Source: a virus
Lineage: Duplodnaviria; Heunggongvirae; Uroviricota; Caudoviricetes
Virus record (IMG/VR): IMGVR_UViG_2548876867_000017
Location: 1-35,219 of that record
Reading direction: 5' to 3' (one strand)
DNA: 35,219 bases
Shown: positions 5,576 to 33,507 of the stretch, piece by piece
How the letters are laid out: the number at the start of each line of letters is the position of its first letter
How positions within the stretch are numbered: position 1 is the stretch's first letter
Position numbers and translations under genes: made by a program
The notes under the pieces: generated by a model
Told to the model about the DNA's origin: nothing
Databases searched by the model: none
Seen by the model: only the letters and a program-made list of their open reading frames with translations

Positions 5576-6259
5576 TTAAACGTATTTCATGCGCGATTTA
5601 ATGTGCTTATTGATGTTTTCAAGCATCATTGCTTCGTTGCTTTCCCACGATCCTAGCGTCGAATAACGAGTAGAAATTTTATCCGATTTAACGGCAACAA
5701 TTCGCTTGCTCTGTTTCTGTATGCGTTTCTCTAAGCGACGTTTTGCCACCGCCGATCCATTCCTAGCGCGTTTGGTTCGGGATTTCTTAGGCTTGTACTT
5801 CTTCATGATAAAAGTCCCTTCCTTGTTCTCTACCTTGATGAAGTTGCCGTTTTCGAGGTTACGCATCATCTTACCGCCTTTGATGGCCTTAATGTTCCCG
5901 TGGGCGTCTAAGACCTTGCCGTTAGCGATTGGAACTAGCTTATTGATTTTGCCACCATCGAAATAGTGTTTCAGATAGTCATCCTGACTGCCGATCTTCT
6001 TGTCCTTATCCCTTGCGCCCTTGATGAAGATTTGGTGTCTCGTCCCTGATCGGTTCTTGTAGTTGGTATTACCTACAGCTTGCTGAGTCCAGCGAGTAGG
6101 TCTATCAACATTCTTGTTAATCTTCTTCTGGAGTGCTCTGGAAGCAAAGATCGCCCCTTCCCCTAGTGCCCTTTCGAATGTATCGGTTGCCTTTTCAGAC
6201 CATTGCCGTAACGCTTTCTTAGTCCTTAGAGCGTTTCGTTTATTGGTACTGGTTGCCAT
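5576..6259 (-). CDS. hypothetical highly basic protein
   Basis: 227 aa, Lys/Arg rich at both ends; RBS AGGGGG; stop abuts the upstream gene. Confidence 0.55.
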   Translation of the reverse strand: MATSTNKRNALRTKKALRQWSEKATDTFERALGEGAIFASRALQKKINKNVDRPTRWTQQAVGNTNYKNRSGTRHQIFIKGARDKDKKIGSQDDYLKHYFDGGKINKLVPIANGKVLDAHGNIKAIKGGKMMRNLENGNFIKVENKEGTFIMKKYKPKKSRTKRARNGSAVAKRRLEKRIQKQSKRIVAVKSDKISTRYSTLGSWESNEAMMLENINKHIKSRMKYV

Positions 6260-6450: not shown

Positions 6451-6729
6451 TTATTTTTGTCTGAGTAAATCGATAACTTGGTCAAATTTAGCGTCCATCG
6501 CAACCACTTTCTTCTCTATACCGTGTAGTGTTTGTTCCATTTGGTAAACACGTTCGGCAATCTGAGTATGGTTATTCTGCATCGTCTCAAACTTCTGGTT
6601 TAACAATGCGTCGCTGGATTCCAATTTAGATAACCTATTTTCTGTTGCTAATTGATTTCGGTGGAGTCTCCAAAGCCCACCGCAAATTAAGGCGATAACA
6701 CCGATACCGCCATATATAATTTCAGTCAT
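6451..6729 (-). CDS. membrane-anchored coiled-coil protein (i-spanin-like or lysis-associated)
   Basis: N-terminal TM segment IIYGGIGVIALICGGLW followed by predicted coiled coil; position next to holin-like and peptidase genes. Confidence 0.4.
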   Translation of the reverse strand: MTEIIYGGIGVIALICGGLWRLHRNQLATENRLSKLESSDALLNQKFETMQNNHTQIAERVYQMEQTLHGIEKKVVAMDAKFDQVIDLLRQK

Positions 6730-6782
6730 TACGCCCCCGATATTTTTATATAGTTTAATGGCAAAATTATTTAGATAAAAAT

Positions 6783-6816
6783 AATCCCGCCTAACTCAAA
6801 AGAATTAAGCGGGATT
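6783..6816 (-). terminator. intrinsic terminator after tail tip gene
   Basis: AATCCCGC..GCGGGATT 8 bp stem followed on minus strand by ATTTTTAT, directly after the 6835 stop. Confidence 0.5.
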
Positions 6817-6834
6817 AATTATTAGAATTAAATT

Positions 6835-9800
6835 TTAAGAAACAGAAATACCAGTCGCGGCTTTCTTAGTTACCATTACCGTTAGATCGCTGATATATGC
6901 ACTTGGGTTATAGTTGTTAACGCCCTTACAGTAAACTTCAAAAGTCATTGTTACTGCCCCGTGTCCGGCTGGCATGTCAATAACTCCACTGTACATACAG
7001 CCAGAAGTTGCAGTGCGATCATATAGAACACCACCATTTTTCTTAACGATTAGTCGGCAAGTATCCCAATGATCGCTACTTTCGCCACGACGAACAGACC
7101 CGTTATGATGAATCGCTGGAATCACTATTTGGCGATCGAATGGATGATCATCTTCGACCCTTACAGTGATTGCACCATCAGGCCAGTTTGGTTGGCGATG
7201 CGGGAAACTCCTACCAACCACTTTCACGAAGTCACCACGCACCTGATTAGCATCAAGCATACCCAAAATGCGGCAACTTGAATTAATCGTTACGTTGTTC
7301 ATTTCGCCGGAATCAGCCACCAAATGACCACGAATATTAGCGTGTCTAAAATGGCAAGTGCCATCTTTGCCAATATACCATCCATCGTTACCATTCCAGT
7401 TATAAGACTGGATATAGTTACCAATTTTAGCATTATCGATAGAGCCATCAATAATATGACCTGTTCCGATCTGTGCGTGCTGGATGTGAGCACCGTTAAT
7501 CTGGGCTGTGCCGATCTTAGCCGTAGTGATACTAGCATCACTAATCTGGGCGGTTCCGATCGCTGCATTACGAATCATTGCATTATCGAGATAAACCTTG
7601 TTATCTTCGATACCAAACGGACAAACTTCTGATCCGTCTTGTGGAGCCACCGCGATTTTATCAGCCGTAAAGATGATTCTCGTCGGTTGTGCTGGATCGT
7701 TGGTTGCGCTCATATGAATACCAGCCACGCGACCATCTGCATTAACTGCCAGATTATATTTGCTGTTAATGGTTCCCTTCAAAGCATCGATTTTTACATC
7801 TGCTTCCTGATTCACACCAGCAATCTTGCCATCCATTTCTACCCGAACTTGATCAATCTTACTTGCGCTTGCTGCCTCACTGGTAGCAATTGCTTGTTTC
7901 AGGGTAGTAGCGGATGCGCTAACTTCTTTGGTGATATCGCCTTTCAGTTCAGCTTTAACCTGATCAATCTTAGTTGCGCTGGCTTGCTCACTGGTAGCAA
8001 TCAGACTCTTGAGAGTATCGGCTGAGGCTTGGACCGTCTGCCCTGTCTCGGTAGTAATCTGTTTATGCATTGCATCAATCTTAGCATCGGCATTAGCGCC
8101 AGCTTGAGCAATAGCATCCGCGATGGTTTCATCTAAGCGATCTTGTAAACCGATCAGGTCTTCCAGTGCTTCTTTGTCCTGATCGTCCCAACTAATGGTA
8201 GATTTCATTTGCATGAAATACGGTTCGGACCAAACAGCATCATCCATACCGAAAATATCGTAGTGAGCACCACGGATATAATAATCACCGTCAGCAATAT
8301 CAAAGGAAGTATGGCTAACACTATTCGTGCTTACTGCCCTTGCATCTGAGAAAGTGTTATCGGTTGCATACTGGATGATTGACCCTGCATAGTCATGTTC
8401 TACGTCATCCGCCCAGCTAACAAACGCAGTATTAAAGCCACCACGCGCACTAAAACCTTTCATTGGCTTATGCTGTGGGTTAATAGCCACTAAACGCGCT
8501 GGGGCGCTTACAGAGTTGTTATAACCCTTAGCGGATACTTCTACCGTCAATTCACGGGAAAGGCCGTTAAACTGGTTCATATCGAGCGTATAGGTCCATG
8601 ATTCAGGATCGCGGGTACGGTACTGAATAGACTTACCAGCCTTGTTAGTTACCTTGATAATGTAGGCTTCAAACAGGTCACTAAACTTGTTAGCTTCATC
8701 GTTGATCATCACATCTAATTGTTGCTGATTGTCCCATTCAATAATCAGATCGTTGCCTTCGAAAGTACCAGGTGAACTACCCTGATTTTTGATTCGAATA
8801 ACCGGAGTCGGCAATTCATAGGTAACAGTAGGATTCTGGTTAACCAGTTCCACCCATTCGGAACGAGCAATAATACCGAAAGCACAAACGCGGTAATCGT
8901 AGGAGCGATCTTTTGCCAGTGCATTGATATTGAAAATTTGCTGTGAAGTCTGTCCCAGCTTAATCCAGTTAGGTGATCCACTCACACGATAATCAATCTG
9001 GAAACCGTAGCGGTTGAAATCTTCCGGTGCATCCCATGTCAAAGTTACGTTTTTACCGTGGATTGTCTCACCAGTTGCCTTAATTCTGAAATTAGTCGGT
9101 TTCTGTACTGTCATTGAATCCGGTAAACCAGTAGGTCTATTGTCTGGAGTCGCCGCATAGTTCAGGTCAGTATAAACCTGAGAATTATATTCTGTGGCGG
9201 TGATCGTCATCATCCCAGCAATACCAGAATCAATAGAACGATCAATTGCAGTAATACGCCAAAGTGAATTATTCAGTTTTAATTCATCATAGGTTACGCT
9301 AATAACATCCCAAACTTCGGCAGTGAATGCGTCAGTAGTCATAAAGCTGATAACCTGAGTGATACGAGATTTATTTCGTTCAATACTCGCGAGTTTATCA
9401 ATCTGGGCTTTAGACTTAACAAAACGATATTCAATATCTTTAGCGATAATTCGACCATCTTGACGAATAGTAGCATCGTTTTCAGCATCAGCCGGATAAC
9501 GTAGCATTTGCTCTGAATAGTCGATTGATGGTTCTTGATACATCGCGTTAATGGTATTGAAATAACCGTTAGTGCCACCTGTTTTCAGTGATACCTTACC
9601 CATCATGATATTGTCTTCATTGAAGGTATGCTTAACAATATCAGGAGCATCCAGTTTCAGAGTAATACGTCCAAAGGATTCGAACATTACCCCGCCGAAA
9701 GTCTGCATAAGACTGGTCAAGTTCTCTTTAAAGCTGGCGTTCGGATCACATGCACCGTTTGAATGTAGGTCCATCTGTCGTACTTGTTTACGTACTTTCA

Positions 9801-10581
9801 GGAATGAATCAACGTTAATGTTTTCAATTGGTACGGATAAGCCATATTTTTCATTTGTTAGGTAGTGGAAAATCTGATCCACGCCGTTAGTGCTAGCCTC
9901 AATAGCATTGGTTTCGAGGTTACGGATTTTTAAGCCCATAACATCTACTGCCACTTGGCTATTTGGCTGGAGAATATCAACACCAGCAGCCAAAGATTTA
10001 TCGTCACGACGTAACACAATACACATGGTTGCAATGCCGTTACCCTGATACCGATCATCCCAATCAGCGCCCAAATGATGTTTAGCTAAATCCAATGCGG
10101 TGTTAGGATTTTTACCAGTGCGAAACTCGACTTCTAAAACTTTGCGATACTCGTCTTTAATGTTTCCTTTATCGAGAATGCCATCACGAATTGTCATATT
10201 CTGGCTAATGAGAACGTTTTTATTATCGATGTGCAGTGCTTTAAAGTGATCGATCTCACCTTCGGCAATAGCAAAAATTTGTACCAGTTTGTTATTTTCA
10301 CGCTGTGAAATTGCTTTGTAAACGCAGATTGCACCCGTGCGGGTAGTACCGAAAAGAACGGGTAATACTGTCTTAGGATCGTTTGATGTTCCTAGTGTCA
10401 CCGCATTATCTGGGCTTTGTACTTTCGGTGTTTTTGGTGCGCCTACAGTGGAAGCGATCAAGGTCATTGCACCAGCAGCCATACCGATAGCGACTGCGGT
10501 CATAACAGAAAATGTTGCGGCTGCCGCCATCCCCGCCGAAGCACCAGCGATCACCGCGCCTACCAATACTTCAAATCCCAT
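6835..10581 (-). CDS. central tail fiber / host specificity protein (lambda gpJ-like) with gpI-like N-terminal segment
   Basis: 1248 aa; C-terminus (DDHPFDRQIVIPAI, VIDMPAGHGAVTMTFEV, ends ATGISVS) matches the lambda J receptor-binding domain as I recall it; N-terminal Gly/Ala hydrophobic stretch plus LPVLFG resembles gpI C-terminus; TAATG overlap with upstream gene. Confidence 0.8.
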   Translation of the reverse strand: MGFEVLVGAVIAGASAGMAAAATFSVMTAVAIGMAAGAMTLIASTVGAPKTPKVQSPDNAVTLGTSNDPKTVLPVLFGTTRTGAICVYKAISQRENNKLVQIFAIAEGEIDHFKALHIDNKNVLISQNMTIRDGILDKGNIKDEYRKVLEVEFRTGKNPNTALDLAKHHLGADWDDRYQGNGIATMCIVLRRDDKSLAAGVDILQPNSQVAVDVMGLKIRNLETNAIEASTNGVDQIFHYLTNEKYGLSVPIENINVDSFLKVRKQVRQMDLHSNGACDPNASFKENLTSLMQTFGGVMFESFGRITLKLDAPDIVKHTFNEDNIMMGKVSLKTGGTNGYFNTINAMYQEPSIDYSEQMLRYPADAENDATIRQDGRIIAKDIEYRFVKSKAQIDKLASIERNKSRITQVISFMTTDAFTAEVWDVISVTYDELKLNNSLWRITAIDRSIDSGIAGMMTITATEYNSQVYTDLNYAATPDNRPTGLPDSMTVQKPTNFRIKATGETIHGKNVTLTWDAPEDFNRYGFQIDYRVSGSPNWIKLGQTSQQIFNINALAKDRSYDYRVCAFGIIARSEWVELVNQNPTVTYELPTPVIRIKNQGSSPGTFEGNDLIIEWDNQQQLDVMINDEANKFSDLFEAYIIKVTNKAGKSIQYRTRDPESWTYTLDMNQFNGLSRELTVEVSAKGYNNSVSAPARLVAINPQHKPMKGFSARGGFNTAFVSWADDVEHDYAGSIIQYATDNTFSDARAVSTNSVSHTSFDIADGDYYIRGAHYDIFGMDDAVWSEPYFMQMKSTISWDDQDKEALEDLIGLQDRLDETIADAIAQAGANADAKIDAMHKQITTETGQTVQASADTLKSLIATSEQASATKIDQVKAELKGDITKEVSASATTLKQAIATSEAASASKIDQVRVEMDGKIAGVNQEADVKIDALKGTINSKYNLAVNADGRVAGIHMSATNDPAQPTRIIFTADKIAVAPQDGSEVCPFGIEDNKVYLDNAMIRNAAIGTAQISDASITTAKIGTAQINGAHIQHAQIGTGHIIDGSIDNAKIGNYIQSYNWNGNDGWYIGKDGTCHFRHANIRGHLVADSGEMNNVTINSSCRILGMLDANQVRGDFVKVVGRSFPHRQPNWPDGAITVRVEDDHPFDRQIVIPAIHHNGSVRRGESSDHWDTCRLIVKKNGGVLYDRTATSGCMYSGVIDMPAGHGAVTMTFEVYCKGVNNYNPSAYISDLTVMVTKKAATGISVS

Positions 10582-11000
10582 TATTCACCCCCGAATCTAT
10601 AAACTTGTTCATAGTCAATGTCTGAAACAGGAATGGTCATCCAGATACCATCTTCTTCAACGAGGCCATAACCGGAATAATGAGGAACTACGGAATAATA
10701 TTTGCGGTTTCCTAATTTGTGGGCTGTGACCAGTAAGTCGCCGTCCTGTAAATCATCAGTGACTAATTTGAAATGTTTCTTAATTGGTTGAAGGATATTT
10801 GAATACCCGCTTAATTCTTTGCAGATTTTCAAGCCTTCTTCTTTAGTTGAATATTTTTTATAAAGAGAATTATATAGGTCAGTACCAGCGAGAATATCGA
10901 TGATCTTACATGCAATTAGATTGCAATCATTCTCGCCTTGAACGAACTCCTGACCTATTAAAGAATTGATGTAATCGGTGATAAGCCTAGTTTTTAGCAT
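10581..11000 (-). CDS. tail assembly protein, NlpC/P60-like (gpK-like)
   Basis: Start moved to ATG 11000 with RBS GGAGGT; Cys motif GENDCNLIACKI and downstream His resemble an NlpC/P60 fold; position just upstream of the J-like gene. Confidence 0.45.
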   Translation of the reverse strand: MLKTRLITDYINSLIGQEFVQGENDCNLIACKIIDILAGTDLYNSLYKKYSTKEEGLKICKELSGYSNILQPIKKHFKLVTDDLQDGDLLVTAHKLGNRKYYSVVPHYSGYGLVEEDGIWMTIPVSDIDYEQVYRFGGE

Positions 11001-11046
11001 GTTGAATACCTCCATGCTGTTATTTACTAGGCTTAGGGAGAAGGGA

Positions 11047-11817
11047 TTATTTCTTGAAGTCTTCGTACATTCTACGAAGGTTGTATTTTGGATGGCCTAA
11101 GCTAACCATGATTTGGCTCAATTTAACTGCGCCAGGTTTGCCGTTTTCAATCCACACACGACGGATTTCATCGTAATGCTGCCAACAGCCTTGACCTTTA
11201 GCAATGCGTATAGAATGTGTATATTTCTTGGTAGAGCTTTCTGGTCGCTTACGCCCTAGATGTGCTTTTCTAATCTTTTCGCGTGTTTCTTCTGATACAG
11301 GTTTACCATAACGGGGGTTATTTTCTCCACGAGAAGCAGCGGATAATTTAGCTAATATTTCTGGGTTGGTTATTTTCTTCCCTTTCATTGCACTAGGTTT
11401 ACCATAGCGATGGTTCTTTTCACCCATTCGAGATGCCGACATTTTAGCTCTAGATTCCGGTGTATGTTTTCTTCCGTAAAAAGGATGATTTTCACCACCA
11501 TCAAAACCACCGACACCACCAGGAGCAATATTAAGACATACACCACGCCCCCATTTTTCGCGTGCTGCCTCCACTAACAGAATTTCACATTCAAACGCTT
11601 CCTCGGCAGTATCAAACAATTTTGAGCGAACAACTTCAAATTCATATATCGGGGTTTCTGATTCTTTATTTTTACGCTTCATCATTTTAATAACTTTACC
11701 CGACCCCACATATCCATCATCTAGATTTGTAGTTGTTCTTTTTCCGACGTAATGATAGATTTTACCAGAGCGATTAGATTTAATAGTGGTGTGATAAACG
11801 TAATGGAATTTTTGCAT
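11047..11817 (-). CDS. GIY-YIG homing endonuclease with NUMOD3-type repeats
   Basis: N-terminal YVYH..GKIYHYVGK GIY-YIG-like motif; repeated NHPFYGRKHTPESRAKMS and NPRYGKPVSEETREKIRKAH modules typical of Seg/I-TevI-type endonucleases. Confidence 0.75.
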   Translation of the reverse strand: MQKFHYVYHTTIKSNRSGKIYHYVGKRTTTNLDDGYVGSGKVIKMMKRKNKESETPIYEFEVVRSKLFDTAEEAFECEILLVEAAREKWGRGVCLNIAPGGVGGFDGGENHPFYGRKHTPESRAKMSASRMGEKNHRYGKPSAMKGKKITNPEILAKLSAASRGENNPRYGKPVSEETREKIRKAHLGRKRPESSTKKYTHSIRIAKGQGCWQHYDEIRRVWIENGKPGAVKLSQIMVSLGHPKYNLRRMYEDFKK

Positions 11818-11891: not shown

Positions 11892-12545
11892 TTACTTTTT
11901 AGACGAGTGCCAGCGGCTTTCGCTATTCCACTTCCCGGCACGAGAGAAGAATAGATCGTTCTCGTTTCCGGCATAAGATCGGTGGATACCATCGGAGGCA
12001 TGACTACGAGCGTTTTTATCTAGAACTTCCCAGATACTATTAAGCTGAAATTCTGATTCGTTTTTACACTCATCATCTTCATGTTCGATGTTAATCCCGA
12101 TGGAATCGACTACCCCACGGAAAACAGGGTAAGTGGTTTCAACCTTGCCCGTGTTAGGGTTCAGGAACACCATTTCGATTTTCACATCTGATTTATCGAA
12201 TTGCTTATTACGAATCAGGGTAATGTATTCTTCGCGAACGTTAGAAACGGTTACGTTAATCCCGTTGTTGTTGATCTCCTTCTCTTCGGTATTCGATGAG
12301 ATTTGAAGAAAATCACCCGTTGCAAGATACGTAAATCCGTTATAGTCCAAATCGAAATACCCATCTGTAAGCCGTAGAACGTCCCCTGACGCGGTTACTA
12401 CTTCGATAATGTGAAACATCGATCCAGTGGAGAAAAGCTGCGGTAGAGTCAATCTAGACACATTCTGACCTGTCTGGTCGTTGTATACCTCGATGAAGTC
12501 CAGATTAGTGCATAGTTTGCTGAATGATTCCTGAATAGTTGCCAT
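11892..12545 (-). CDS. minor tail protein
   Basis: 217 aa; start overlaps upstream stop (TAATG); located between tape measure and tip genes. Confidence 0.5.
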   Translation of the reverse strand: MATIQESFSKLCTNLDFIEVYNDQTGQNVSRLTLPQLFSTGSMFHIIEVVTASGDVLRLTDGYFDLDYNGFTYLATGDFLQISSNTEEKEINNNGINVTVSNVREEYITLIRNKQFDKSDVKIEMVFLNPNTGKVETTYPVFRGVVDSIGINIEHEDDECKNESEFQLNSIWEVLDKNARSHASDGIHRSYAGNENDLFFSRAGKWNSESRWHSSKK

Positions 12546-16358: not shown

Positions 16359-16829
16359 TTAGACTTTCTGGAAAACAGCTTGTTTAACCGGAGCACCATC
16401 TACTACAAAGGTGAAGGTACGGCCTACTACAGCATCCTCACCACCAGTCATGGTAGTTTTAGACAGGAAGCCGTTATAAGCGATATGTACACCAGATTTT
16501 TTCGTAGCGTCGATGTAGTAAGCAATTTTAAGCTGTACGCGCTTACCGTCTTCGGTTGCTTTAATCAGTTTTTCGTGTACTTCGTTACCCGGCATGTAGT
16601 TGATCGAAAGTTCGATATCCGGTACAGACATACGACCAACCAGCTTACGGTTATACGGACCACCGAAGTTAGGAACATCGACAGTAGAACGTTCTACACC
16701 AGTTTCCGGGAAAGCCGCACATTCTGGAATTTCCAGATAGGTTTCAGCATCAAGGTCTTTATTGCTTACGTCTTCTTGCAGAAACAGACCAACGAGGCCA
16801 CCAGAAAAAATATCAAATTTAGTAGTCAT
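16359..16829 (-). CDS. major tail tube protein (lambda gpV N-domain-like)
   Basis: 156 aa; segment LSINYMPGNE..KRVQLKIAYY resembles the gpV tube-domain pattern; strong codon bias; directly upstream of G/T chaperones. Confidence 0.65.
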   Translation of the reverse strand: MTTKFDIFSGGLVGLFLQEDVSNKDLDAETYLEIPECAAFPETGVERSTVDVPNFGGPYNRKLVGRMSVPDIELSINYMPGNEVHEKLIKATEDGKRVQLKIAYYIDATKKSGVHIAYNGFLSKTTMTGGEDAVVGRTFTFVVDGAPVKQAVFQKV

Positions 16830-17828: not shown

Positions 17829-20800
17829 TTACCCTAATTTAGCTTCAATTGCAGCAAGACGTTCACGAAGAAGTTTATTTTCTTCGCTCATTTCTTGGAC
17901 CGCTTTAATTAAAAGCGCGTTCACTGCGGAGTTTGAAATTGTTAAAATTTCTTCTGGGTTATCAAGACCACCAATTTTTGCGGTTTTAACAGCTTCCGGT
18001 AATACCTCTTGTAAATCCTGTGCGATAATACCAATCTCATGACCTATAACTTCTCGGTCATTAAGAGATTTAACTTTATCGTAGGTTTTAACTTTGAGTT
18101 TATTTACCTTATCCACCGCATTTTCTTCGTAATCTTCAACATTAATTTTCAGACGACCATCGGAACGAATATAAACATCGTTAAAGTTACCATTACCAGG
18201 AGAATAGAAAGTACCATCATGATGGAACTCGAATACAGCTTGAGGATGACCAGCCGCTGGCGATGCCTCCGCAGACCCAACACGAATAATTGCTTGCCCC
18301 CAATTTTGAGGAACACGACGCATACCAAAATCGACGGCAGTTGTATACCCTTGATTGGTGATTAAACTTCTTCCTTTAATAATTGGATAATAGCTATCTG
18401 GTCCAACATAGCCATGATCGACGAATATTGGCGCTTCTAAGCCCCATTGATCACCCCAACCTCCAGATTGGCTAGCAGTCCAACGTTCACCATGAACATA
18501 GAATCGAACGTTATTGACATGGGTCATTTCGACGCCTTTTGGACTTAGCGCGATATCCCCCGCGTTTGTAATGTTTACAGCAGCATTAGTAGCATAACTA
18601 TAGAACGCTAATCCATTATCAGCACCACCTTTACCGATATACCAGTTGTTATTATCGGCACAAGTACCCAGCAAATATATAGACGAATCGCCACTTTCGG
18701 CATTCATGATGATTGCATCAGATCCGCGATTAACTTTCAGTTTACCAAAGAAGGAGTTTTTAATGGTATTATCGCCTAATCGTTCAAATTCAGCTAAAAA
18801 TCCTTTTGAGTCACGAAGACTTAAAACGTTATTTCGACCTGTATTGCTTGCCCCCCAATGGACAAGTTCCATATAGTCCATAGATTGACGAGAACCAGCT
18901 TTAAAGAAAAGGTTGTCTTCAAGACGGGTACTACCATCAATTCCCAAATGCAAACAACGAGCAGTTTCAGTGCCACCTAAATCTAATCCACCTTCGGCGA
19001 AATCATAACTGAATGGTCTACGACTATTCCACGGTCCAAAGGAATCACCGAGATCTGTGGTAAGAATATGGAAACCAACACCATCATTTCTAAAAATTAA
19101 GCCATAATTGCCACCTTTAACAGCCAAACGAGCATTTTCAGATAATGCAACTTCGCTATTCATTACGATTTTCTGGCCTTTACCGCCAGTAATATGCAAT
19201 TCACCGTTTTCGATCAAGTTTATCGAGTTTTGACCGTTGTCGTTCCACCAAATAAAATCTTTGGTTGTTCCATCACCAAAACCAAACCAACCATTACGAA
19301 CATCTTGTCCAGTGCGATAATCCATGAAATTAAAATGGCTTGATTCGTTTGGTCCTCGACGAATATCAATACCAGAATTTCCACCAACACCACCATCCAA
19401 TGTTAATTTCTTGACATGTAACCCGGATGTTACTGTCAGCAATAATTCCTGGTTTGTATCTTCGTATCCAGTAGCAAGACGATATGCGTTATCATCAACT
19501 GTCTCATGCCAGATTGTAGCTGGTGCACAACTACGGAAGCGACGCAACATCTTTTTAGCATTTGTCGGTTGTTCGTTTAAATGCTCAATATCATATTGGC
19601 CTTGATGATTGCCAGCAAAATTTAACGTCCCACGGTTGCTAAAGTTATTGAACGATGAAATGTTAAGAGCATCAAAAATTTCATCTGCAACAGGTTTTTC
19701 ACCACCCAGATATTCAGGAGTATCCAACAGGTTTAAAGAAACACCACCGGAAGAAACTTGATATTCTGCTAAAACAAATCCTGTATGTGCACCGTAGTAA
19801 GCGTAAAGATCGTAATTATCACCATCGGTAGGAATTGCACAAAAATGTTGTTCGTGATACCAGATGCTATAATAAGCATTGAATACAACACCTTTCGGGC
19901 TATTGTTGCCGCATCGAATCACCAGTTCGATAATATTGGCTTGTCCATTCTGTCCGACGTTATAACCGTTGCCACCAACTAAGCGGATCTTAGCACTACG
20001 ACCGTGTTGCTGTGGCAGTGTTAAACTACCGAGTTTAAACCAACCGCCCTCGATCCCAAAATTAAGCGTCTTCTGGAACAGTCGGTCAATTTCTGCTTTC
20101 GAATATGCGCCAATTTCAGCCGGAGTAGGTTTATCACCTTCGTGATACATGCGGTGAGAATATGACAAGTTACCCAATTCATCGTAGCCGTATGTTTTTA
20201 CAGTCGGAACAACGTTAGAACCATATGTAAAATCAAAACCGCGAGAATGATTTAGACCGCTAGGATGTGGCACATGCAAAGCTAATGCCAAATGACCATC
20301 CATATCATTAGTACGGAATGCACCAAAATAATCAAGGTTACGCGCACTTGGATCATCAAAATAGTTTGCGGTCTTAGACAGCAAATAGCCATCAGTGTAA
20401 GTGTTTACGTGCTTTTTGATGTACTTGCCATCAGCAGATCCATCGGCTGCATCAATACGGCTTTCTAAGCGTGCCAGTTCGGAATCAGTGTAAGACTTGT
20501 TATTGTCAACTTTGCTATGAATTGCTGTATTTTTGGCCTCAACATCACGGGTTAATGCTGCGACGTTATCCGCTGCCTCCTGCTTATTGGCTGCAATCAC
20601 ACCAGCAAGATGATTGTAAGTGTCGGTTAACTGATTTCCCGCATAGGTTTTATTTGCTGCGATAGTGCGGTCAGTTTCTGCCTTAATCAAATCAACCTTG
20701 TCATTAATTGCTTTGTGATTGCTTGCGATGGTTGCATCAGTACGGGATTTAATATCATCAACTTTTTTATTGATGCGGGTGTCCAGTTCCTGTGTTGCTA

Positions 20801-21239
20801 CAGCAGCCGCATTTTTATTAGCATTGATAGTATCCGACAATTCAGCTTTAACACCAGCAAGGTCGGAAGCAGCTTTATTTTTATTGGCATCGATTGTCGC
20901 GTCGGTTTCGCGTTTAATTACATCAACTTTATTGTTAATTTCTGCGTGATTTGCTGCGATAGTAGAATCAGTAGTTTGTTTAATTTCATCTACTTTAGCG
21001 TGAATATTGCGGTCATTTACTACAATTGTGCTATCCAGTTCTTTTTTATTAGCATCAACTTTAGATTCTAGTGCCGCGTGAGTTTCAGGAGAAACAGAGA
21101 TTTGAACTACTTCATGATCTCGGTCTTTGGTAAAAATAACATGGTCTTTAAGGTTGATTGCTACCTCACCGACCTGTAATTGTTCCGGCGTTGGTTTTTT
21201 GCCAGAAACATTAGTTCGTTTAAATTGGATTGATTGCAT
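17829..21239 (-). CDS. side tail fiber protein with C-terminal intramolecular chaperone (peptidase S74-like) domain
   Basis: 1136 aa; N-terminal periodic KVDxIKxxTDxTIxANK repeats; C-terminal about 110 aa (SDGRLKINVEDYEENAVDKV...LRERLAAIEAKLG) matches the auto-cleaving chaperone domain of endosialidase / T5 L-shaped fiber type; RBS GAGGTG. Confidence 0.85.
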   Translation of the reverse strand: MQSIQFKRTNVSGKKPTPEQLQVGEVAINLKDHVIFTKDRDHEVVQISVSPETHAALESKVDANKKELDSTIVVNDRNIHAKVDEIKQTTDSTIAANHAEINNKVDVIKRETDATIDANKNKAASDLAGVKAELSDTINANKNAAAVATQELDTRINKKVDDIKSRTDATIASNHKAINDKVDLIKAETDRTIAANKTYAGNQLTDTYNHLAGVIAANKQEAADNVAALTRDVEAKNTAIHSKVDNNKSYTDSELARLESRIDAADGSADGKYIKKHVNTYTDGYLLSKTANYFDDPSARNLDYFGAFRTNDMDGHLALALHVPHPSGLNHSRGFDFTYGSNVVPTVKTYGYDELGNLSYSHRMYHEGDKPTPAEIGAYSKAEIDRLFQKTLNFGIEGGWFKLGSLTLPQQHGRSAKIRLVGGNGYNVGQNGQANIIELVIRCGNNSPKGVVFNAYYSIWYHEQHFCAIPTDGDNYDLYAYYGAHTGFVLAEYQVSSGGVSLNLLDTPEYLGGEKPVADEIFDALNISSFNNFSNRGTLNFAGNHQGQYDIEHLNEQPTNAKKMLRRFRSCAPATIWHETVDDNAYRLATGYEDTNQELLLTVTSGLHVKKLTLDGGVGGNSGIDIRRGPNESSHFNFMDYRTGQDVRNGWFGFGDGTTKDFIWWNDNGQNSINLIENGELHITGGKGQKIVMNSEVALSENARLAVKGGNYGLIFRNDGVGFHILTTDLGDSFGPWNSRRPFSYDFAEGGLDLGGTETARCLHLGIDGSTRLEDNLFFKAGSRQSMDYMELVHWGASNTGRNNVLSLRDSKGFLAEFERLGDNTIKNSFFGKLKVNRGSDAIIMNAESGDSSIYLLGTCADNNNWYIGKGGADNGLAFYSYATNAAVNITNAGDIALSPKGVEMTHVNNVRFYVHGERWTASQSGGWGDQWGLEAPIFVDHGYVGPDSYYPIIKGRSLITNQGYTTAVDFGMRRVPQNWGQAIIRVGSAEASPAAGHPQAVFEFHHDGTFYSPGNGNFNDVYIRSDGRLKINVEDYEENAVDKVNKLKVKTYDKVKSLNDREVIGHEIGIIAQDLQEVLPEAVKTAKIGGLDNPEEILTISNSAVNALLIKAVQEMSEENKLLRERLAAIEAKLG
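17832..18164 (-). other. predicted self-cleaving intramolecular chaperone domain of the tail fiber
   Basis: Begins at the conserved Ser of RSDGRLK (Ser codon at 18162-18164); expected to be removed after fiber trimerisation. Confidence 0.6.
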
Positions 21240-21312: not shown

Positions 21313-22146
21313 TCAGTATTCCCCGAAATCGATCCGGTCATGGATAGAAACGGCTTCAATCTCGGCTGGTGTCGGTTTTTCTTCCGTGGAATACACTTTC
21401 ACCCATCCAGAATTACCGTCTTTCTGGACTGTGCGAACTCGTAAACGTGGTGCGCCGGAAGCGGTGCAAGTTAATTGCCATCCACCATCTTCATTAGGTT
21501 GAACGTGAATTAGTGAAGTATCAGCACTAAATGGGTTAGATGCGCTCGATCCCTGATAAGTTACGAAACGGTTTCCGGCTAATGCTTCGCTATCAATCGG
21601 ACCCGTGAATGGATTTACACCAGCACCCAAACCAAAATCACCTTGACGTAAGATCCGGCCTTCGGTAGCAATACCGCGATCTAGAATCCCGCCATCAGGT
21701 TCTAATTTAAACTCGATTGTAGTAACTTTGTTATCACCGGATTTTGTTTTATGTGACGAGACATAAGCGTCAAAAATGACGTAGTAACCTGTGTTAGCAG
21801 CACTATAGCCAGAGTTCACAACATAGAACATACGAAAGCGTAAAGGAGTTTTATCATTCACCGCTTTCATCAACATGTCTTGATGTTCGTCATCCAGAAC
21901 ACGGTTTACTACTAACGTAGTTGATTCAAGTTTACGATAGCCAGCAAGTTTACCCGTAGCGTCCTGATCATACTCTTCTAACGTCTGGATCTCTGTGGAT
22001 TCGGTTAGCGTAGGGAATGCTGCGACGTTCTCGATAGGACTAAATGCAGGATCGAAAAAGTCCGGCTGGTTATCCACCATAGTAGACACGGAGACTTCAA
22101 CATGCGACCCCGTGAAAATGTCTAAGTTATCTTGTGTAATATTCAT
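21313..22146 (-). CDS. structural protein with fiber-like KPTPAEI motif
   Basis: 277 aa; C-terminal EEKPTPAEIEAVS resembles GDKPTPAEIGAYS in the tail fiber; RBS AAGGGGT. Confidence 0.5.
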   Translation of the reverse strand: MNITQDNLDIFTGSHVEVSVSTMVDNQPDFFDPAFSPIENVAAFPTLTESTEIQTLEEYDQDATGKLAGYRKLESTTLVVNRVLDDEHQDMLMKAVNDKTPLRFRMFYVVNSGYSAANTGYYVIFDAYVSSHKTKSGDNKVTTIEFKLEPDGGILDRGIATEGRILRQGDFGLGAGVNPFTGPIDSEALAGNRFVTYQGSSASNPFSADTSLIHVQPNEDGGWQLTCTASGAPRLRVRTVQKDGNSGWVKVYSTEEKPTPAEIEAVSIHDRIDFGEY

Positions 22147-22155
22147 TATTACCCC

Positions 22156-22578
22156 TTAAAAACGCGCTACATAAGAAAATTTAAGGCTAAGTGTCCCAAC
22201 GATACCCCCATCACTAGAATCATCGTCATAATCGGTATTAGAAGCTACTGGAGTGATATCTGAAATAGAGAAGCCCAAATCTTTAAAACGTGGGTTATCC
22301 GGCTGAATCTGGATTATCTGGCAAATACCCTCATGAATTTTTGTTTCATGAATCTGAGAATATAATTGCATTTCGATAACGCATTCAGCTTGCATTGCAT
22401 TACCACCACGGACCCTATTGTAAGTCTCATTCATTCCGGTAATCCAACAAACCACGTCATCACTAAAGCCTTGCTGAGTTTGTTCTACGTTTAAAGCCAG
22501 ACCTAAATCTTGTTCGATAATATCCTGCAAGGCGCGTTTGATTTTCAGTCTAGGCATATTATTAACGGTAGCGAGCAT
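22156..22578 (-). CDS. hypothetical head-tail joining protein
   Basis: Start moved to ATG 22578 with RBS AGGGGG 7 nt upstream (ORF-track start 22659 overlaps upstream gene by 98 nt). Confidence 0.45.
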   Translation of the reverse strand: MLATVNNMPRLKIKRALQDIIEQDLGLALNVEQTQQGFSDDVVCWITGMNETYNRVRGGNAMQAECVIEMQLYSQIHETKIHEGICQIIQIQPDNPRFKDLGFSISDITPVASNTDYDDDSSDGGIVGTLSLKFSYVARF

Positions 22579-23043: not shown

Positions 23044-25050
23044 TCATTCAGCGGAGATGTGAAGAACTTTCAGCGCTTCCGGCTGGGTTACAACGTAATC
23101 CAGATCTACCCAGATACGCGGAACGATAGCAGACTGTGCGCGGTAGGTAGTGTCATCAATGTCAAGTTCCAGACCACCCCATTCACCGATGGTAATAGCG
23201 TCGAACGATCCCAGAACGATGTGGTCTACCGGAATAACACCAGAAGTAACTACGTCGTAACCAGCCAGTTTACCGTTTTCGATGATATAACCGGAAACGC
23301 CGTTATCTTTCAGGGTAGATTCCAGTTCAGCAGCAGTTGCACCGCTCATCGCAAACTTGATCGCCTGAGCAGGAACGCCAGCGTCCGTGAGCTTTGCAAT
23401 CTCCTTGAGGAAGTCTTTATAAGAGAAAGCAGCTTTCTTCTCTACGCGACCAGCATCTACCAGTTGTTTAATCACACCAGCCGGACCACGAGCATTTTCT
23501 TTGTCGGACAGAATCAGTTGTTCCAGTTTGATGCGAACAGCCTGGTTAATGTGATCAGTGATCAGGGTAGCGATGCCGGGTACGGTCTTGAGGCTAGCTC
23601 TGCTGATCGGATTCCCACCAGCAAACGTCTTAGGAGCCATTTTCACGTTTGCAAATTCAGCTTTACCTTCCGGCGCAGCACCGTTTTCATCAACGAAGCC
23701 GAAAGATTCAACGCTGGAAGCGGTCATTTTAGGAATAGCGGTCGGTGAAGTCAGACCAGACAGGACTTTCACACCAAGACGACCCAGAACGGATTCCGGC
23801 AACAGCATCGCTACATAGGAATCATTCAGCAGTTTTTCGTCGGTTACAGCGGTCAGAGTAGCTTTGGTGTTACCATCAGCAGCAGCACGCATAGCAGCAG
23901 TCGGAACGAATACAGAGCCACCGCGAGCAGCACGACCACGCTGCATAGTTGCAGTAGCAGCCATTGCAGAAAACTCGGCTTCGTGAGCACCCAGAGCTTC
24001 ACCATCTACCAGAGAGCGAATTACGTTGTTCAGGTCAAAAGTTTTTTCCATTTTAGAGTCCTTAATTTGTTGTTCGTTATTACGTTGAGCATTGGTAATG
24101 TTATTTAGTGCCTTAGTGCGGAATGCTTCCGGCGTCATATCTTTAATTGCCAATGCGCGTTCTAATTCTTCGTCGTTAATATTTAACTCACGAGCGATTG
24201 CTCGGATTTCTTCTTCGTCTTCTTCGGAACGTTCAGCCACTTCTTCGATTTTTTCTTCTTCAACCGGAGCAGCTTCACGTTCTTCTTTTACTTCTTCTGT
24301 TTCCCGAACAGTTGAACTATCATCATCAACACTTTCAGGATGTTCAGCGTCTTTTCCGTCTTCGAGATTTTCATCTTCTTTATTCTCTTCAACTTGGCGC
24401 TCTTGAGTTTCTTCTACTTCCGATTCTTTATTTTCTTCTACCGGAGTTTCTTCAACCTGAGCGGATTCTTGTTCTTCTTTGATTTCTTCAATTTGTTCTT
24501 TAGTCATATCGCGTTTAGCCTCCAAATTAACTGTGATAGTATTTAGAGAGCGATTTAAACCGACCGAATCGTCCGCCGGGACCGTAACAAAACTTAATTC
24601 GAAAGGAACAAACTTAGTAACAATCAATTGTCCTTTGGCATAATCGATGTGATATTCTTTAATGTCATAGCCGACAGAAATTTTTTCCATCGTACCTTCA
24701 ATGACCTTATTACGAATATCATTAGCCAAAGTGCCATGCTTAGAGAATCTAACGGTCGCACGGCCTACTTTATCCGCATCGATTCGAGCGTTACAAACGA
24801 CACCTAAATGATTATCGAAATTATGATTAAACAGCAACGGAGCGTTATTATTCAGACGAGACAGATCAACCGCTTCCGGTGTATGTATCAGAATTTCATC
24901 TAATACCACCATTTCTTGATTTTGCTCATCCCAGAATTGGCGCTGATAAGGCTGTTCACTGGAGAAAGCAATTTCAAATTCGTATTGATCGTTATGCCCT
25001 TCGTTAATAACTCCACCGTAACCGTTAAGTTCGCGGCGAAATTTAAGCAT
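23044..25050 (-). CDS. fused prohead protease - scaffold-like linker - major capsid protein (HK97 fold)
   Basis: 668 aa; N-terminus has HK97-type protease motifs (APLLFNHNFDNHLGVV, ISVGYDI, ELSFVTVPADDSV); acidic Glu-rich middle; C-terminal about 350 aa with capsid-like pattern and strong codon bias; RBS AAAGGTGA. Confidence 0.8.
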   Translation of the reverse strand: MLKFRRELNGYGGVINEGHNDQYEFEIAFSSEQPYQRQFWDEQNQEMVVLDEILIHTPEAVDLSRLNNNAPLLFNHNFDNHLGVVCNARIDADKVGRATVRFSKHGTLANDIRNKVIEGTMEKISVGYDIKEYHIDYAKGQLIVTKFVPFELSFVTVPADDSVGLNRSLNTITVNLEAKRDMTKEQIEEIKEEQESAQVEETPVEENKESEVEETQERQVEENKEDENLEDGKDAEHPESVDDDSSTVRETEEVKEEREAAPVEEEKIEEVAERSEEDEEEIRAIARELNINDEELERALAIKDMTPEAFRTKALNNITNAQRNNEQQIKDSKMEKTFDLNNVIRSLVDGEALGAHEAEFSAMAATATMQRGRAARGGSVFVPTAAMRAAADGNTKATLTAVTDEKLLNDSYVAMLLPESVLGRLGVKVLSGLTSPTAIPKMTASSVESFGFVDENGAAPEGKAEFANVKMAPKTFAGGNPISRASLKTVPGIATLITDHINQAVRIKLEQLILSDKENARGPAGVIKQLVDAGRVEKKAAFSYKDFLKEIAKLTDAGVPAQAIKFAMSGATAAELESTLKDNGVSGYIIENGKLAGYDVVTSGVIPVDHIVLGSFDAITIGEWGGLELDIDDTTYRAQSAIVPRIWVDLDYVVTQPEALKVLHISAE

Positions 25051-31947: not shown

Positions 31948-32524
31948 AGTGGTATCCTCTAAAAGAAAGTGAATCAAGTAAGTTCACTATTATTTATAAA
32001 GAGAAAATTCTTGTTATTATGAAAGGTGATTGTATTCAGTCGGGCAAAGCCCTCCTTCATGATTTGATTAAATCATCATCAAAACGAAGAAGTATCTTTA
32101 GAATATAAGAATCTTTCTTTTGGAGAAATAATAATCAGGAAGCAATTTAGCAACCGAAGGTTGCAATCCCGAAGGGATACCAATACCTTTCTAGAAAGTG
32201 ATTGTTACTCACTTCGTTCGTTTACTAGAATCAGTTAGTAACTAGTATTAAATCCCTTTCTAAGAAAATCCTTTCAAAAGCGAGTGAACGCCGTAGGCGT
32301 GAACGTGAGCGAAGCGAACTATCCAATCCCTTTCGAATCCTGCTTGCAGGTCTTAGAAGGTGTTGATGGGCGCTTCGCGCACGGCTACGCCGTATTCTTT
32401 TTGCGAGATCTTTCTTGAACGTAGTGAGAGAAAACGAGCAAAAAGGAGAACGTTAGTTCGAATTTTATATTCTATGGTCTGTGGGGTGAAATGTCTTTCA
32501 AGATCATACGCTTATGAGATTGAA

Positions 32525-32648
32525 GTGTAGGGTTAGTGTAGGTGTGTAGGTTTCATAGTGTAGGTTTGAGGGTGTTATAGTGTAGGTTTACTGACTAGTG
32601 TAGTGTAGGCCAATCCCTTTAAAGCGTAGGTTTGTAGTGTAGGTTTTT
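32525..32648. repeat. iteron-like array of about 8 copies of (A)GTGTAGGTTT
   Basis: Direct repeats at about 32525, 32536, 32544, 32558, 32580, 32603, 32626, 32637, spaced 8-23 bp, in an ORF-free region and followed by an AT-rich tract. Confidence 0.6.
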
Positions 32649-32751
32649 CATCAAAAATTTTGATAGAAAATTCTTGTATATTATTTAACCGGAAAATCAC
32701 CAAAAATCGCTGTAAATGTATGATTTAAAAAGAATTATCAAAAGGTCGCCG

Positions 32752-32760
32752 TGCTATAAT
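32752..32760 (+). promoter_or_regulatory. extended -10 promoter element (TGcTATAAT)
   Basis: TGCTATAAT at 32752-32760 in AT-rich region upstream of rightward genes; weak -35. Confidence 0.4.
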
Positions 32761-32840
32761 AGGTTATAAAGGTTGATAATCGTTATCCGCCATTTTCACA
32801 CAAAAATTTTGATAGTCATTTCTCGCTTAGGTCAAGTGCA

Positions 32841-32869
32841 TTGACAACTGTCAAGGATTATTTTATACT
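32841..32869 (+). promoter_or_regulatory. near-consensus sigma70 promoter for rightward genes
   Basis: TTGACA (32841-32846), 17 bp spacer, TATACT (32864-32869); -35 is part of palindrome TTGACA-AC-TGTCAA. Confidence 0.6.
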
Positions 32870-33211
32870 TTTTCTCATTGGTAGGGGTTGAAATTTTCGA
32901 AACAATCCCCATATTGATGATAAACAAGATTTTTTCGTGTATAAATACATGCATGAAATGATTGTTCACTTCTGAAAATCCCCTGATTCACTGTTAACAC
33001 ACACAGCACTGGTTAAACACACAGTGCTTTTTCGATTGAATAATGTACGAATTGATTAATTATTAATCTTCTCTTTAGCAATTCGTGCTCCCACTGATCA
33101 GATATACAGTGGTTTTGCAGGGTTTTCTGAAATGACTTTTATAAATAGAAGTATCGAGGGCGAAAAGCTCTTTTTATTGTCCTTATTAATCCACATTTGA
33201 GGAATCTACTT

Positions 33212-33391
33212 ATGGCTAGACCTGTTAAGTTTACTCGTGAAATGATTGTTGATATTGCTAAACGCTTTTATGGCGATACTGAACGAGGCGGCGAGAATTT
33301 CTTTAAGAAGGAAGGAATTGATAGAAGCGGATTCTATAAGCTAATGAAGAAATACGAAATTCAGATAAAGATTAACGTTCAAGTTTGTTAA
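33212..33391 (+). CDS. small HTH protein (paralog of 29817..30044)
   Basis: Start at ATG 33212 with RBS GAGGAA; ARPVKF..VDIAKRFYG..IDRSGFYKLMKKYEIQIKINVQ parallels the 29817 product. Confidence 0.5.
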   Translation: MARPVKFTREMIVDIAKRFYGDTERGGENFFKKEGIDRSGFYKLMKKYEIQIKINVQVC

Positions 33392-33433
33392 TCCACTTTC
33401 ACTGAGAATTATACGATGGCTTTAAAAATAAAA

Positions 33434-33461
33434 AGCCTCCCTTGTTGCAGCAAAGGAGGCT
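33434..33461 (-). terminator. minus-oriented intrinsic terminator inside rightward gene block
   Basis: AGCCTCC..GGAGGCT hairpin preceded on plus strand by an A-run (U-run on minus transcript); no T-run on plus side. Confidence 0.4.
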
Positions 33462-33507
33462 TGAAATGAACAATTAAAACTAACACAGCATTCAGGAGTA
33501 TTTATAA

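Follow-up and report, generated by a model that had tools for sequence, protein, structure and literature searches.

The window analysed here is the full 35,219-nucleotide stretch of IMG/VR virus record IMGVR_UViG_2548876867_000017 (Caudoviricetes), and positions 6835-10581 of its minus strand encode a tail tip protein of 1248 amino acids (aa). We read this protein, with a probability of roughly 0.8, as the trimeric, mosaic tip protein of a prophage siphovirus. Its N-terminal module resembles part of lambda gpI, its hub and fibronectin type III-like (FN3) domains resemble T5 pb3, and its C-terminus is a fibre of the lambda gpJ type ending in a receptor-binding domain (RBD) predicted to dock on a porin. 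The domain homologies, the gene order, an architecture found across the family, the exchange of the RBD as a cassette and the Escherichia coli host were all observed in the analysis. The gene is a single open reading frame (ORF) of 1248 codons plus a stop codon with an ATG start, as seen in the ORF list and the translation, and the plus-strand translation of the same positions is interrupted throughout by stops.

The C-terminal region of the protein was compared with lambda gpJ and its relatives. Pfam Ig_GpJ_C (PF12421) matched aa 1132-1248 with an E-value of 1.5e-34 and 119.4 bits against a cut-off of 26.2. BLASTP aligned aa 1073-1247 with lambda J 952-1131 at 41% identity over 180 aa (E 2e-34). 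A phmmer search of the PDB returned the solved gpJ RBDs as the best sequence matches (E 1e-33 to 4e-44), among them A8 gpJ (9wca, E 3.7e-44) and lambda gpJ (E 3e-34). A sequence-only reading of the window, made without database searches, had likened the last ~110 residues to the gpJ RBD; the likeness holds, and the homologous part is longer than proposed, at ~153-180 residues. The RBD is located at the extreme C-terminus, after a beta-prism and a conserved NVTI..C.I.G.L.A..I.GD junction. This junction and a C-terminal KK..GI[ST][IV] ending were common to the window protein, lambda, phi21, A8, 434, WGPS6 and VT1-Sakai in the alignment.

The fibre that carries the RBD is also of the lambda J type. 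Pfam Phage_Tail_Tip (PF09327) matched aa 931-1028 (E 3.5e-18), overlapping a region in which four IG[TN]x motifs (aa 1008, 1023, 1038 and 1053) follow one another at a spacing of exactly 15 residues. A helical stretch holds four KID motifs, at aa 834, 871, 908 and 930. Both kinds of repeat that had been noticed from the letters alone are thus real. Tandem Repeats Finder did not detect DNA-level tandem repeats behind the KID or IGTAQI periodicity. At the protein level, the shaft (aa 834-945) contains a duplication of ~37 residues (TLKSLIATSEQASATKIDQVKAEL and TLKQAIATSEAASASKIDQVRVEM), and the family members P0003-P0095 can be grouped by length into classes between 1211 and 1258 aa; the length of the shaft may vary with the repeat copy number. 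Lambdoid J proteins aligned to the tip protein only from aa ~845-950 onward, and PHROG assigned aa 20-785 to an N-terminal family and the part from aa 821 or 887 onward to tail-fibre families that are lambda-J-like.

The N-terminal module was compared with lambda gpI. In lambda, the C-terminal half of gpI consists of a pair of hydrophobic helices, a plug that occupies the tip lumen, and strands that augment the gpJ sheets; on opening, according to a published proposal, it drops down and enters the outer membrane (PMC11101478, PMC10721106). In the window protein, 19-residue windows with starts from aa 1 to aa 31, which together cover aa 1-49, had a mean Kyte-Doolittle hydropathy of 1.4-1.8. BLASTP aligned aa 48-107 with gpI 156-223 (35% identity, E 1e-6), and the Smith-Waterman score of aa 1-100 against gpI 101-223 was 87, compared with 34.6 +/- 5.7 for shuffled sequences, of which 0 of 500 reached 87. 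A profile built from 12 family N-termini and searched against PDB sequences matched lambda gpI 116-220 (E 2e-7, 97 profile positions), with the hydrophobic segment aligned to gpI 116-155. The same profile matched T5 pb3 262-313 (E 9e-8), the equivalent, non-hydrophobic segment, through aa ~71-122; the T5 plug hairpin at pb3 residues 230-238 lies directly before it (PMC10038345). By analogy with gpI, aa 1-47 form a putative membrane-penetration module.

A resemblance to gpI could also arise from composition, the Gly/Ala-rich hydrophobic segment producing alignments where no homology exists. We consider this very improbable, as the non-hydrophobic part alone was highly significant: aa 46-100 scored 64 against gpI 151-223, compared with 21.8 +/- 4.3 for shuffled sequences (0 of 1000; z ~9.8), and the profile reached both gpI and the non-hydrophobic T5 pb3 segment. 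What speaks for a compositional effect is the low complexity of aa 1-47, the BLASTP alignment of aa 48-107 only, and the outcome of the single-sequence searches. These fell short of gpI, for which the family profile was needed: phmmer against the PDB gave gpI at E 0.23, and a phmmer search with aa 1-115 of 1.8 billion representative proteins did not find a stand-alone gpI. Pfam Lambda_tail_I (PF06805, ubiquitin-like) was absent from aa 1-140 even at E-values up to 10. This result is uninformative for the C-terminal half of gpI because the family models the ubiquitin-like domain only (gpI 14-97). At the level of sequence comparison, the homology of aa 1-~100 to the C-terminal half of gpI is confirmed beyond shared composition, in agreement with the sequence-only reading, which had pointed to gpI for the first ~90 residues.

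Between the N-terminal module and the fibre, the hub and the FN3 region were examined by profile searches and structure modelling. The hub profile matched DT57C pb3 (E 2.1e-16) and T5 pb3 (E 3.3e-16) in the PDB, with aa 273-689 aligned to pb3 527-943, and lambda gpJ was not among the matches of this search. Pfam Phage-tail_3 (PF13550) matched the hub at E 7e-4, under its cut-off. An hhalign comparison of the aa 1-830 profile with lambda J was collinear but weak (probability 7.8%, E 0.0044), and homology of the hub to lambda J is therefore not claimed. The AlphaFold model covers aa 1-830, was built from an 8-sequence alignment and has a mean predicted local distance difference test (pLDDT) of 57.5; it is trustworthy in the FN3 region only. 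The top Foldseek matches of the model were T5 and DT57C pb3 (E 3e-15 and 3e-17). In the FN3 region, strand-rich domains were observed at aa 496-580, 595-700 and 711-792 with pLDDT 70-90, and triple-FN3 fragments were matched by Foldseek at E ~1e-13 to 1e-14. FN3 profile matches were also obtained in the PDB, and the Pfam fn3 match was sub-threshold (E 0.0028). The fibronectin-like segments predicted from the letters alone thus correspond to three FN3-like domains.

The combination of gpI-like and gpJ-like parts in one chain had suggested an I-J gene fusion to the sequence-only reading. The chain is indeed collinear with gpI (C-terminal half) followed by gpJ, I and J are adjacent in lambda, and aa 91-200 matched J 1-120 marginally (score 38 compared with 24.7 +/- 4.3; 8 of 500 shuffles reached 38). 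The collinearity and both homologies therefore stand, and the step that fails is a fusion of lambda-type genes. A recent fusion of this kind within the lambdoid lineage is improbable: the Lambda_tail_I ubiquitin-like domain is absent, the hub is pb3-like and unlike that of lambda J, which was absent from the profile matches and reached an hhalign probability of just 7.8%, and the neighbouring genes are not homologues of lambda M, L or K. The phmmer search with aa 1-115 returned 14 relatives, most of ~650-1600 aa, and the module was N-terminal in all 14. The N-terminal architecture is common to relatives that are just 30-60% identical, among them proteins of Vibrio, Pelagibacter and Roseobacter phages; alignments with distant relatives from these phages and from Providencia phages also start at residue ~25-76. 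From the placement of the module in these proteins, the arrangement is taken to be ancestral to the lineage. On these comparisons, we regard it as the norm across the lineage, with precedents in T5 pb3 and in the megatron of the Rhodobacter capsulatus gene transfer agent (RcGTA), and not as the product of lambda genes that fused recently. The split and single-chain arrangements may be related by either fusion or fission.

The closest relative in the phage database was found in Escherichia phage DCP80 (L002, PQ671644.1, 18679-22437), at 38.6% identity over aa 29-1119 and with a different C-terminus. The DCP80 record is 141 kb long and assigned to Straboviridae/Gaprivervirus, and its genes include motA and endonuclease VII. 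It is odd for a T4-like record to contain a tip protein of the siphovirus type; the record could be misclassified, the assembly chimeric or the phage truly unusual.

The window protein was set against the tail tips of known structure. Towards the C-terminus, it has the same succession as lambda gpJ (PDB 8IYK, 8XCJ): a helical shaft, a beta-prism and an Ig-like RBD (PF09327 and PF12421). The two also share the FN3 domains between hub and fibre, and the NVTI junction before the RBD. The window protein differs in a hub that lacks significant sequence similarity to gpJ, in giving no match to Pfam FNIII-A_GpJ, Ig_J or Ig_J_second, all of which match lambda J, and in carrying a gpI-like N-terminal module, which lambda J does not have. 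This module corresponds to gpI 116-220, comprising H1, H2, the plug and the strands that augment the gpJ sheets. Unlike gpI, it lacks PF06805 and is the N-terminus of a 1248-aa chain instead of a separate polypeptide. No other I-like ORF was found between the tape-measure gene and the tip gene in the ORF list or by Pfam and PHROG searches. At the place of lambda gpK, the neighbouring gene encodes a DUF6950 protein of 144 aa that, again unlike the lambda system, has no Pfam JAB match.

The pb3 proteins of T5 and DT57C (PDB 7ZHJ, 8HQZ) are the closest solved hub homologues by sequence, with the homology lying in hub domains II-IV. As in the window protein, the plug and the hub are in one chain and FN3 domains follow the hub. 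However, pb3 holds hub domain I in the same chain, while here a separate 217-aa PF09931 gene is present and the match starts at pb3 262; pb3 ends after two FN3 domains, compared with three in the window protein. T5 also keeps its fibre (pb4) and its receptor-binding protein (pb5, which binds FhuA) separate, whereas the window protein carries both fibre and RBD in-chain. RcGTA (g13 hub, g14 peptidase, g15 megatron) offers a parallel in the order Dit, DUF2163 hub, small protein and large tip protein. The large protein of the window may likewise begin with a hydrophobic channel-closing or penetration segment, and the role of the megatron N-terminal iris/penetration domain has been described (PMC7296036). 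The N-terminus of the window protein is hydrophobic but gave no megatron sequence match in the PDB searches, and the model shows no structure for it (pLDDT ~23). The megatron carries a domain for binding fibres and, unlike the window protein, neither a central fibre nor an RBD of the J type.

Several points weigh against the mosaic reading as a whole. The Foldseek TM-scores to pb3 were just 0.15-0.18, because the hub model is poor. The pLDDT fell below 50 at aa 1-84 and 296-411, in the N-terminus and the hub. No RcGTA megatron sequence was matched in the N-terminal and hub profile searches of the PDB, so that the RcGTA parallel rests on gene order and on the hub Pfam domain (26.5 bits against a cut-off of 26). 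Finally, a T4 gp37-like side fibre encoded in the same window may dominate the host range.

Receptor choice was examined by comparing RBDs from the conserved NVTI junction to the C-terminus, by alignment with family members. The window RBD was 57.5% identical to that of VT1-Sakai (without a known receptor), 51.3% to phi21 (LamB), 49.3% to 434 (OmpC), 48.0% to WGPS6 (the closest relative of phi330, which uses OmpC), 47.4% to A8 gpJ (OmpC) and 43.1% to lambda (LamB). Lambda was thus the most distant characterised relative in the identity matrix. The RBDs of phi21, A8/1A2, 434 and phi330/WGPS6 are fellow members of the Ig_GpJ_C family, with 47-51% identity to the window RBD and the same junction. 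They differ in being placed on lambda-type J hubs and in their receptors, LamB for phi21 and OmpC for A8/1A2, 434 and phi330, and the window RBD falls into none of their sub-clades. The VT1-Sakai RBD was 68.6% identical to phi21, 64% to A8 and 43% to lambda, and the WGPS6 RBD was 96.9% identical to that of 434.

Receptor use does not track RBD similarity in this family, and LamB is therefore not predictable from sequence. The RBDs of phi21 and A8 are 81.6% identical despite their different receptors, and those of lambda and phi21, both LamB users, are merely 49.7% identical. The RBDs of lambda, 434 and phi330 likewise share 35-40% identity despite differing receptors, phi330 requiring OmpC (PMC12502783). 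One J mutation opens OmpC to phi21, and further mutations open OmpF (PMC11336670). A8 and 1A2 deliver via OmpC in a lamB-deleted host (PMC11338833), the 434 J confers OmpC use, and the LamB contacts of lambda J have been described as loops L1-L4 (PMC11101478). We infer from the family relationship that the most likely docking site of the RBD trimer is a trimeric porin of the outer membrane, of the LamB, OmpC or OmpF class. The particular porin, LamB, OmpC or another, cannot be read from sequence.

The two receptor assignments that can be proposed within this class are both live options, and the evidence places OmpC slightly ahead of LamB. Binding to OmpC or another general porin such as OmpF, and not to LamB, is a tentative assignment that falls somewhat short of even odds. 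Most characterised non-lambda members use OmpC (A8 and 1A2, PMC11338833; 434, PMC11101478; phi330, PMC12502783), A8 is the best-scoring solved homologue, and the nearest clade, of the VT1-Sakai type, is 64% identical to A8 and just 43% to lambda. That clade is also 68.6% identical to the LamB-using phi21, however, and the window RBD is less than 50% identical to every OmpC binder. Specific binding to LamB, with a phage that is LamB-dependent like lambda, had been predicted in the sequence-only reading; it now appears unlikely and is unsupported by the sequence. The top PDB match is the OmpC-using A8 gpJ, with 154 bits compared with 117-121 for lambda, and lambda itself is the most distant characterised homologue. 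The independence of receptor from similarity seen between phi21 and A8, the single mutation that switches phi21 to OmpC (PMC11336670), and a nearest clade (57.5%) without a known receptor count further against it. In its favour are the Pfam family shared with lambda J (41-43% identity), an identity to phi21 marginally above that to A8 and 434, and a loop around aa 1160-1172 of short, lambda-like length. It might also be that the clade of the window RBD, whose closest neighbour is the uncharacterised VT1-Sakai/PPompW type, recognises a porin, or a variant of one, that differs from those mapped so far.

Comparison of homologues across the prophage family revealed that identity in the body and identity in the tip do not go together. 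For P0065, identity was 84-88% over the body and 98-100% over the RBD, whereas P0096 and P0097 had a body that was 72-86% identical and an RBD that was 46-52% identical. In Salmonella homologues, the body was 74-86% identical and the C-terminus 19-25%, with no PF12421. The breakpoint in identity between body and tip lies at residue ~1070-1096, and the same conserved junction, equivalent to lambda J residue 964, serves engineers who build gpJ chimeras (PMC11338833). Judged by these identities, the RBD is an exchanged cassette within this prophage family.

A route of infection can be proposed for the tip, in which every step is borrowed from lambda and T5 structures, and we infer it from those systems. 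In the resting particle, the N-terminal module in the tip lumen would probably block the tape-measure protein and the DNA, and the remaining hub domain would be supplied by the separate 217-aa hub protein, as in RcGTA. Docking of the RBD trimer on a porin trimer would start an opening signal that, by analogy with lambda and T5, may run up the fibre, first along its beta-prism and then along the helical shaft. Rearrangement of the FN3 strings and an outward swing of the hub domains would follow. The N-terminal plug would be released, its hydrophobic helices could enter the outer membrane, and the tape measure, followed by the DNA, would exit through the opened tip.

The distribution of the tip gene identified the host and the nature of the element. 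A megablast search of the tip gene against 50,697 phage records gave zero matches, and a search of the remaining window against the phage records gave matches limited to T4-like fibre genes. Proteins 94-98% identical to the tip protein are common in E. coli assemblies, under the RefSeq name 'phage tail tip protein'. The gene was present in 55 of the 5426 complete E. coli genomes at 80-98% nucleotide identity, and was chromosomal in every case. In E. coli O55:H7 DEC5A (NZ_CP038394, ~2.72-2.75 Mb), the whole element lies beside a truncated hicB and next to ydcR; FDAARGOS_946 is another carrier. The chromosomal occurrence and the DEC5A locus together identify E. coli as the host and the element as a temperate prophage. 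The element is a temperate, non-lambdoid E. coli siphovirus prophage with a GC content of ~42%. The mEpimmI phage group was considered as a source and rejected, as its GC content is 46% and a DNA match was absent. In DEC5A (L003 29501-29620), the prophage end abuts the truncated hicB antitoxin gene, and a 559-aa serine recombinase is encoded near the same end; from this junction, the element appears to integrate into hicB and disrupt it.

Table 1. Positions in the window of the tip gene, its domains and the neighbouring features of the tail operon.
Feature	Positions	Strand	Basis
Tail-tip gene (J-like / megatron-like), complete	6835..10581	-	ORF list and translation; RefSeq homologues
Gly/Ala-rich hydrophobic segment, counterpart of gpI H1/H2 helices, aa 1-47	10441..10581	-	Hydropathy, profile alignment
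gpI-like plug and beta-strand segment (APKTPKVQSPDN...LPVLFGTTRTG), aa 48-98	10288..10440	-	BLASTP, shuffles, profile
Hub body, T5 pb3-like, weak Phage-tail_3 match, aa 99-490	9112..10287	-	Profile against PDB
Three tandem FN3-like beta-sandwich domains, aa 491-795	8197..9111	-	AlphaFold, Foldseek, PDB profile matches
Alpha-helical shaft, KID repeats, aa 796-945	7747..8196	-	Model helices from aa 800
Central straight fibre (beta-prism), four 15-residue IGTAQI-type repeats, aa 946-1095	7297..7746	-	Pfam and repeat positions
Junction motif NVTINSSCRILGMLDANQVRGD, then Ig-like RBD of the lambda gpJ family, aa 1096-1248	6838..7296	-	PF12421, PDB matches
GC-rich hairpin (AATCCCGC...GCGGGATT) and T-run just 3' of the tip-gene stop	6775..6816	-	Read off the sequence
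DUF6950 protein, 144 aa; position of lambda gpK / RcGTA g14	10581..11015	-	PF22262 E 3.2e-12
NUMOD3 homing endonuclease, between hub gene and DUF6950 gene	11047..11817	-	phrog_314 E 5e-32
Separate hub protein, 217 aa, DUF2163 'attachment domain'	11892..12545	-	PF09931 26.5 bits, cut-off 26 (borderline)
Distal tail protein (Dit), 186 aa	12545..13105	-	phrog_1302 E 1.4e-16; weak T5 pb9 B-domain match
Tape measure protein, 809 aa	13156..15585	-	phrog_13674 E 1.3e-66

The tip gene is the last gene of a siphovirus tail operon (Table 1), in which Pfam and PHROG gave the order tape measure protein, Dit, hub (PF09931), homing endonuclease, DUF6950 protein and tip protein. Upstream are terminase, portal, a putative fused protease-capsid protein, tail-tube proteins and the long side fibre; the downstream side encodes an endolysin and a large serine recombinase. 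The ATG of the tip gene shares TAATG with the stop codon of the upstream DUF6950 gene and is preceded by the Shine-Dalgarno sequence GGGGGTGA, from which the tip gene is predicted to be translationally coupled to the DUF6950 gene. The hairpin and T-run 3' of the gene form a putative intrinsic terminator.

The 217-aa hub protein also matched phrog_2048 tail protein (E 1.6e-27) and carries the PGAP name 'DUF2163 domain-containing protein'. The DUF6950 protein gave weak hints of a papain-like or NlpC/P60 relationship (Peptidase_C39, E 0.13), lambda gpK matched DUF6950 at E 0.067, and a JAB domain was not found in the Pfam search of this protein. PDB sequence searches with the DUF6950 protein and with the 217-aa hub protein returned nothing useful. 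The NUMOD3 homing-endonuclease gene in the tail-tip operon is present in the DEC5A prophage too. Just downstream of the tip gene, the minus strand encodes a 92-aa coiled-coil protein (6451-6729) and a 227-aa protein (5576-6259) with a weak match to 'minor tail protein' phrog_1924 (E 3.7e-4). By comparison with the loci 3' of J in other siphoviruses, these two small genes could encode tip accessories or exclusion factors.

The side-fibre region was also examined. The minus-strand gene at 17829-21239, extending to ~17524, encodes a 1136-aa side tail fibre whose distal part is like T4-type gp37 (phrog_1699, E 5e-128). About 2.1 kb of this region is 94.5% nucleotide-identical to the T4-like phage KFS-EC, covering the long tail fibre distal subunit and an adjacent hypothetical gene. 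This identity suggests that virulent T-even phages and this temperate prophage have recently exchanged sequence. Two minus-strand genes that flank the side fibre, at 21313-22146 and 16359-16829, both match the major tail (tube) protein family phrog_158, so that the side-fibre gene is inserted between the head/tube and the tube/chaperone genes. The minus-strand gene at 23044-25050 encodes a 668-aa 'major head protein' of which the first ~346 residues also match a 'major head and protease' family, suggesting a fused protease/scaffold-capsid protein. ARAGORN called a 91-nt tRNA-Lys(UUU) at 22301-22391 on the plus strand, antisense to a coding region, and its length and position suggest a false positive. 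At ~31977-33500, ~1.5 kb without an ORF of at least 70 aa lies within the lowest-GC 2-kb block (32001-34000, 38%), and no Rfam family was matched there at the gathering threshold.

Part of the finding was already known: RefSeq names the gene a phage tail tip protein and fused architectures have precedents. The significance is modest and addressed to specialists. The result provides a sequence-level link between lambda gpI, the plug region of T5 pb3 and the N-terminal ends of long tip proteins that make up a large siphovirus family. It thereby supports the structural proposal of Xiao et al. in which gpL, gpI and gpJ's N-terminal part together are the counterpart of T5 pb3 (PMC10721106). The missing JAB match in the gene at the gpK position parallels the missing ubiquitin-like domain in the tip protein, and the two domains may have been lost together. 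A bolder and rather doubtful proposal is that the tip protein is a natural single-chain equivalent of gpI (C-terminal half) plus gpJ that works without the gpI ubiquitin-like domain and without a JAB-domain gpK, with an RBD clade perhaps suited to an unmapped porin or porin variant. If this were true, the ubiquitin-like/JAB pair of lambda would be a dispensable assembly accessory, and the plug/penetration module the conserved core. For receptor prediction, the comparison advises caution, as the porin cannot be named from Ig_GpJ_C membership at ~40-50% identity. In E. coli prophages, non-lambdoid tail chassis acquire the fibre and RBD cassette of the lambda J type by exchange, and new RBD variants at the known graft junction could help to retarget lambda-based delivery vectors.

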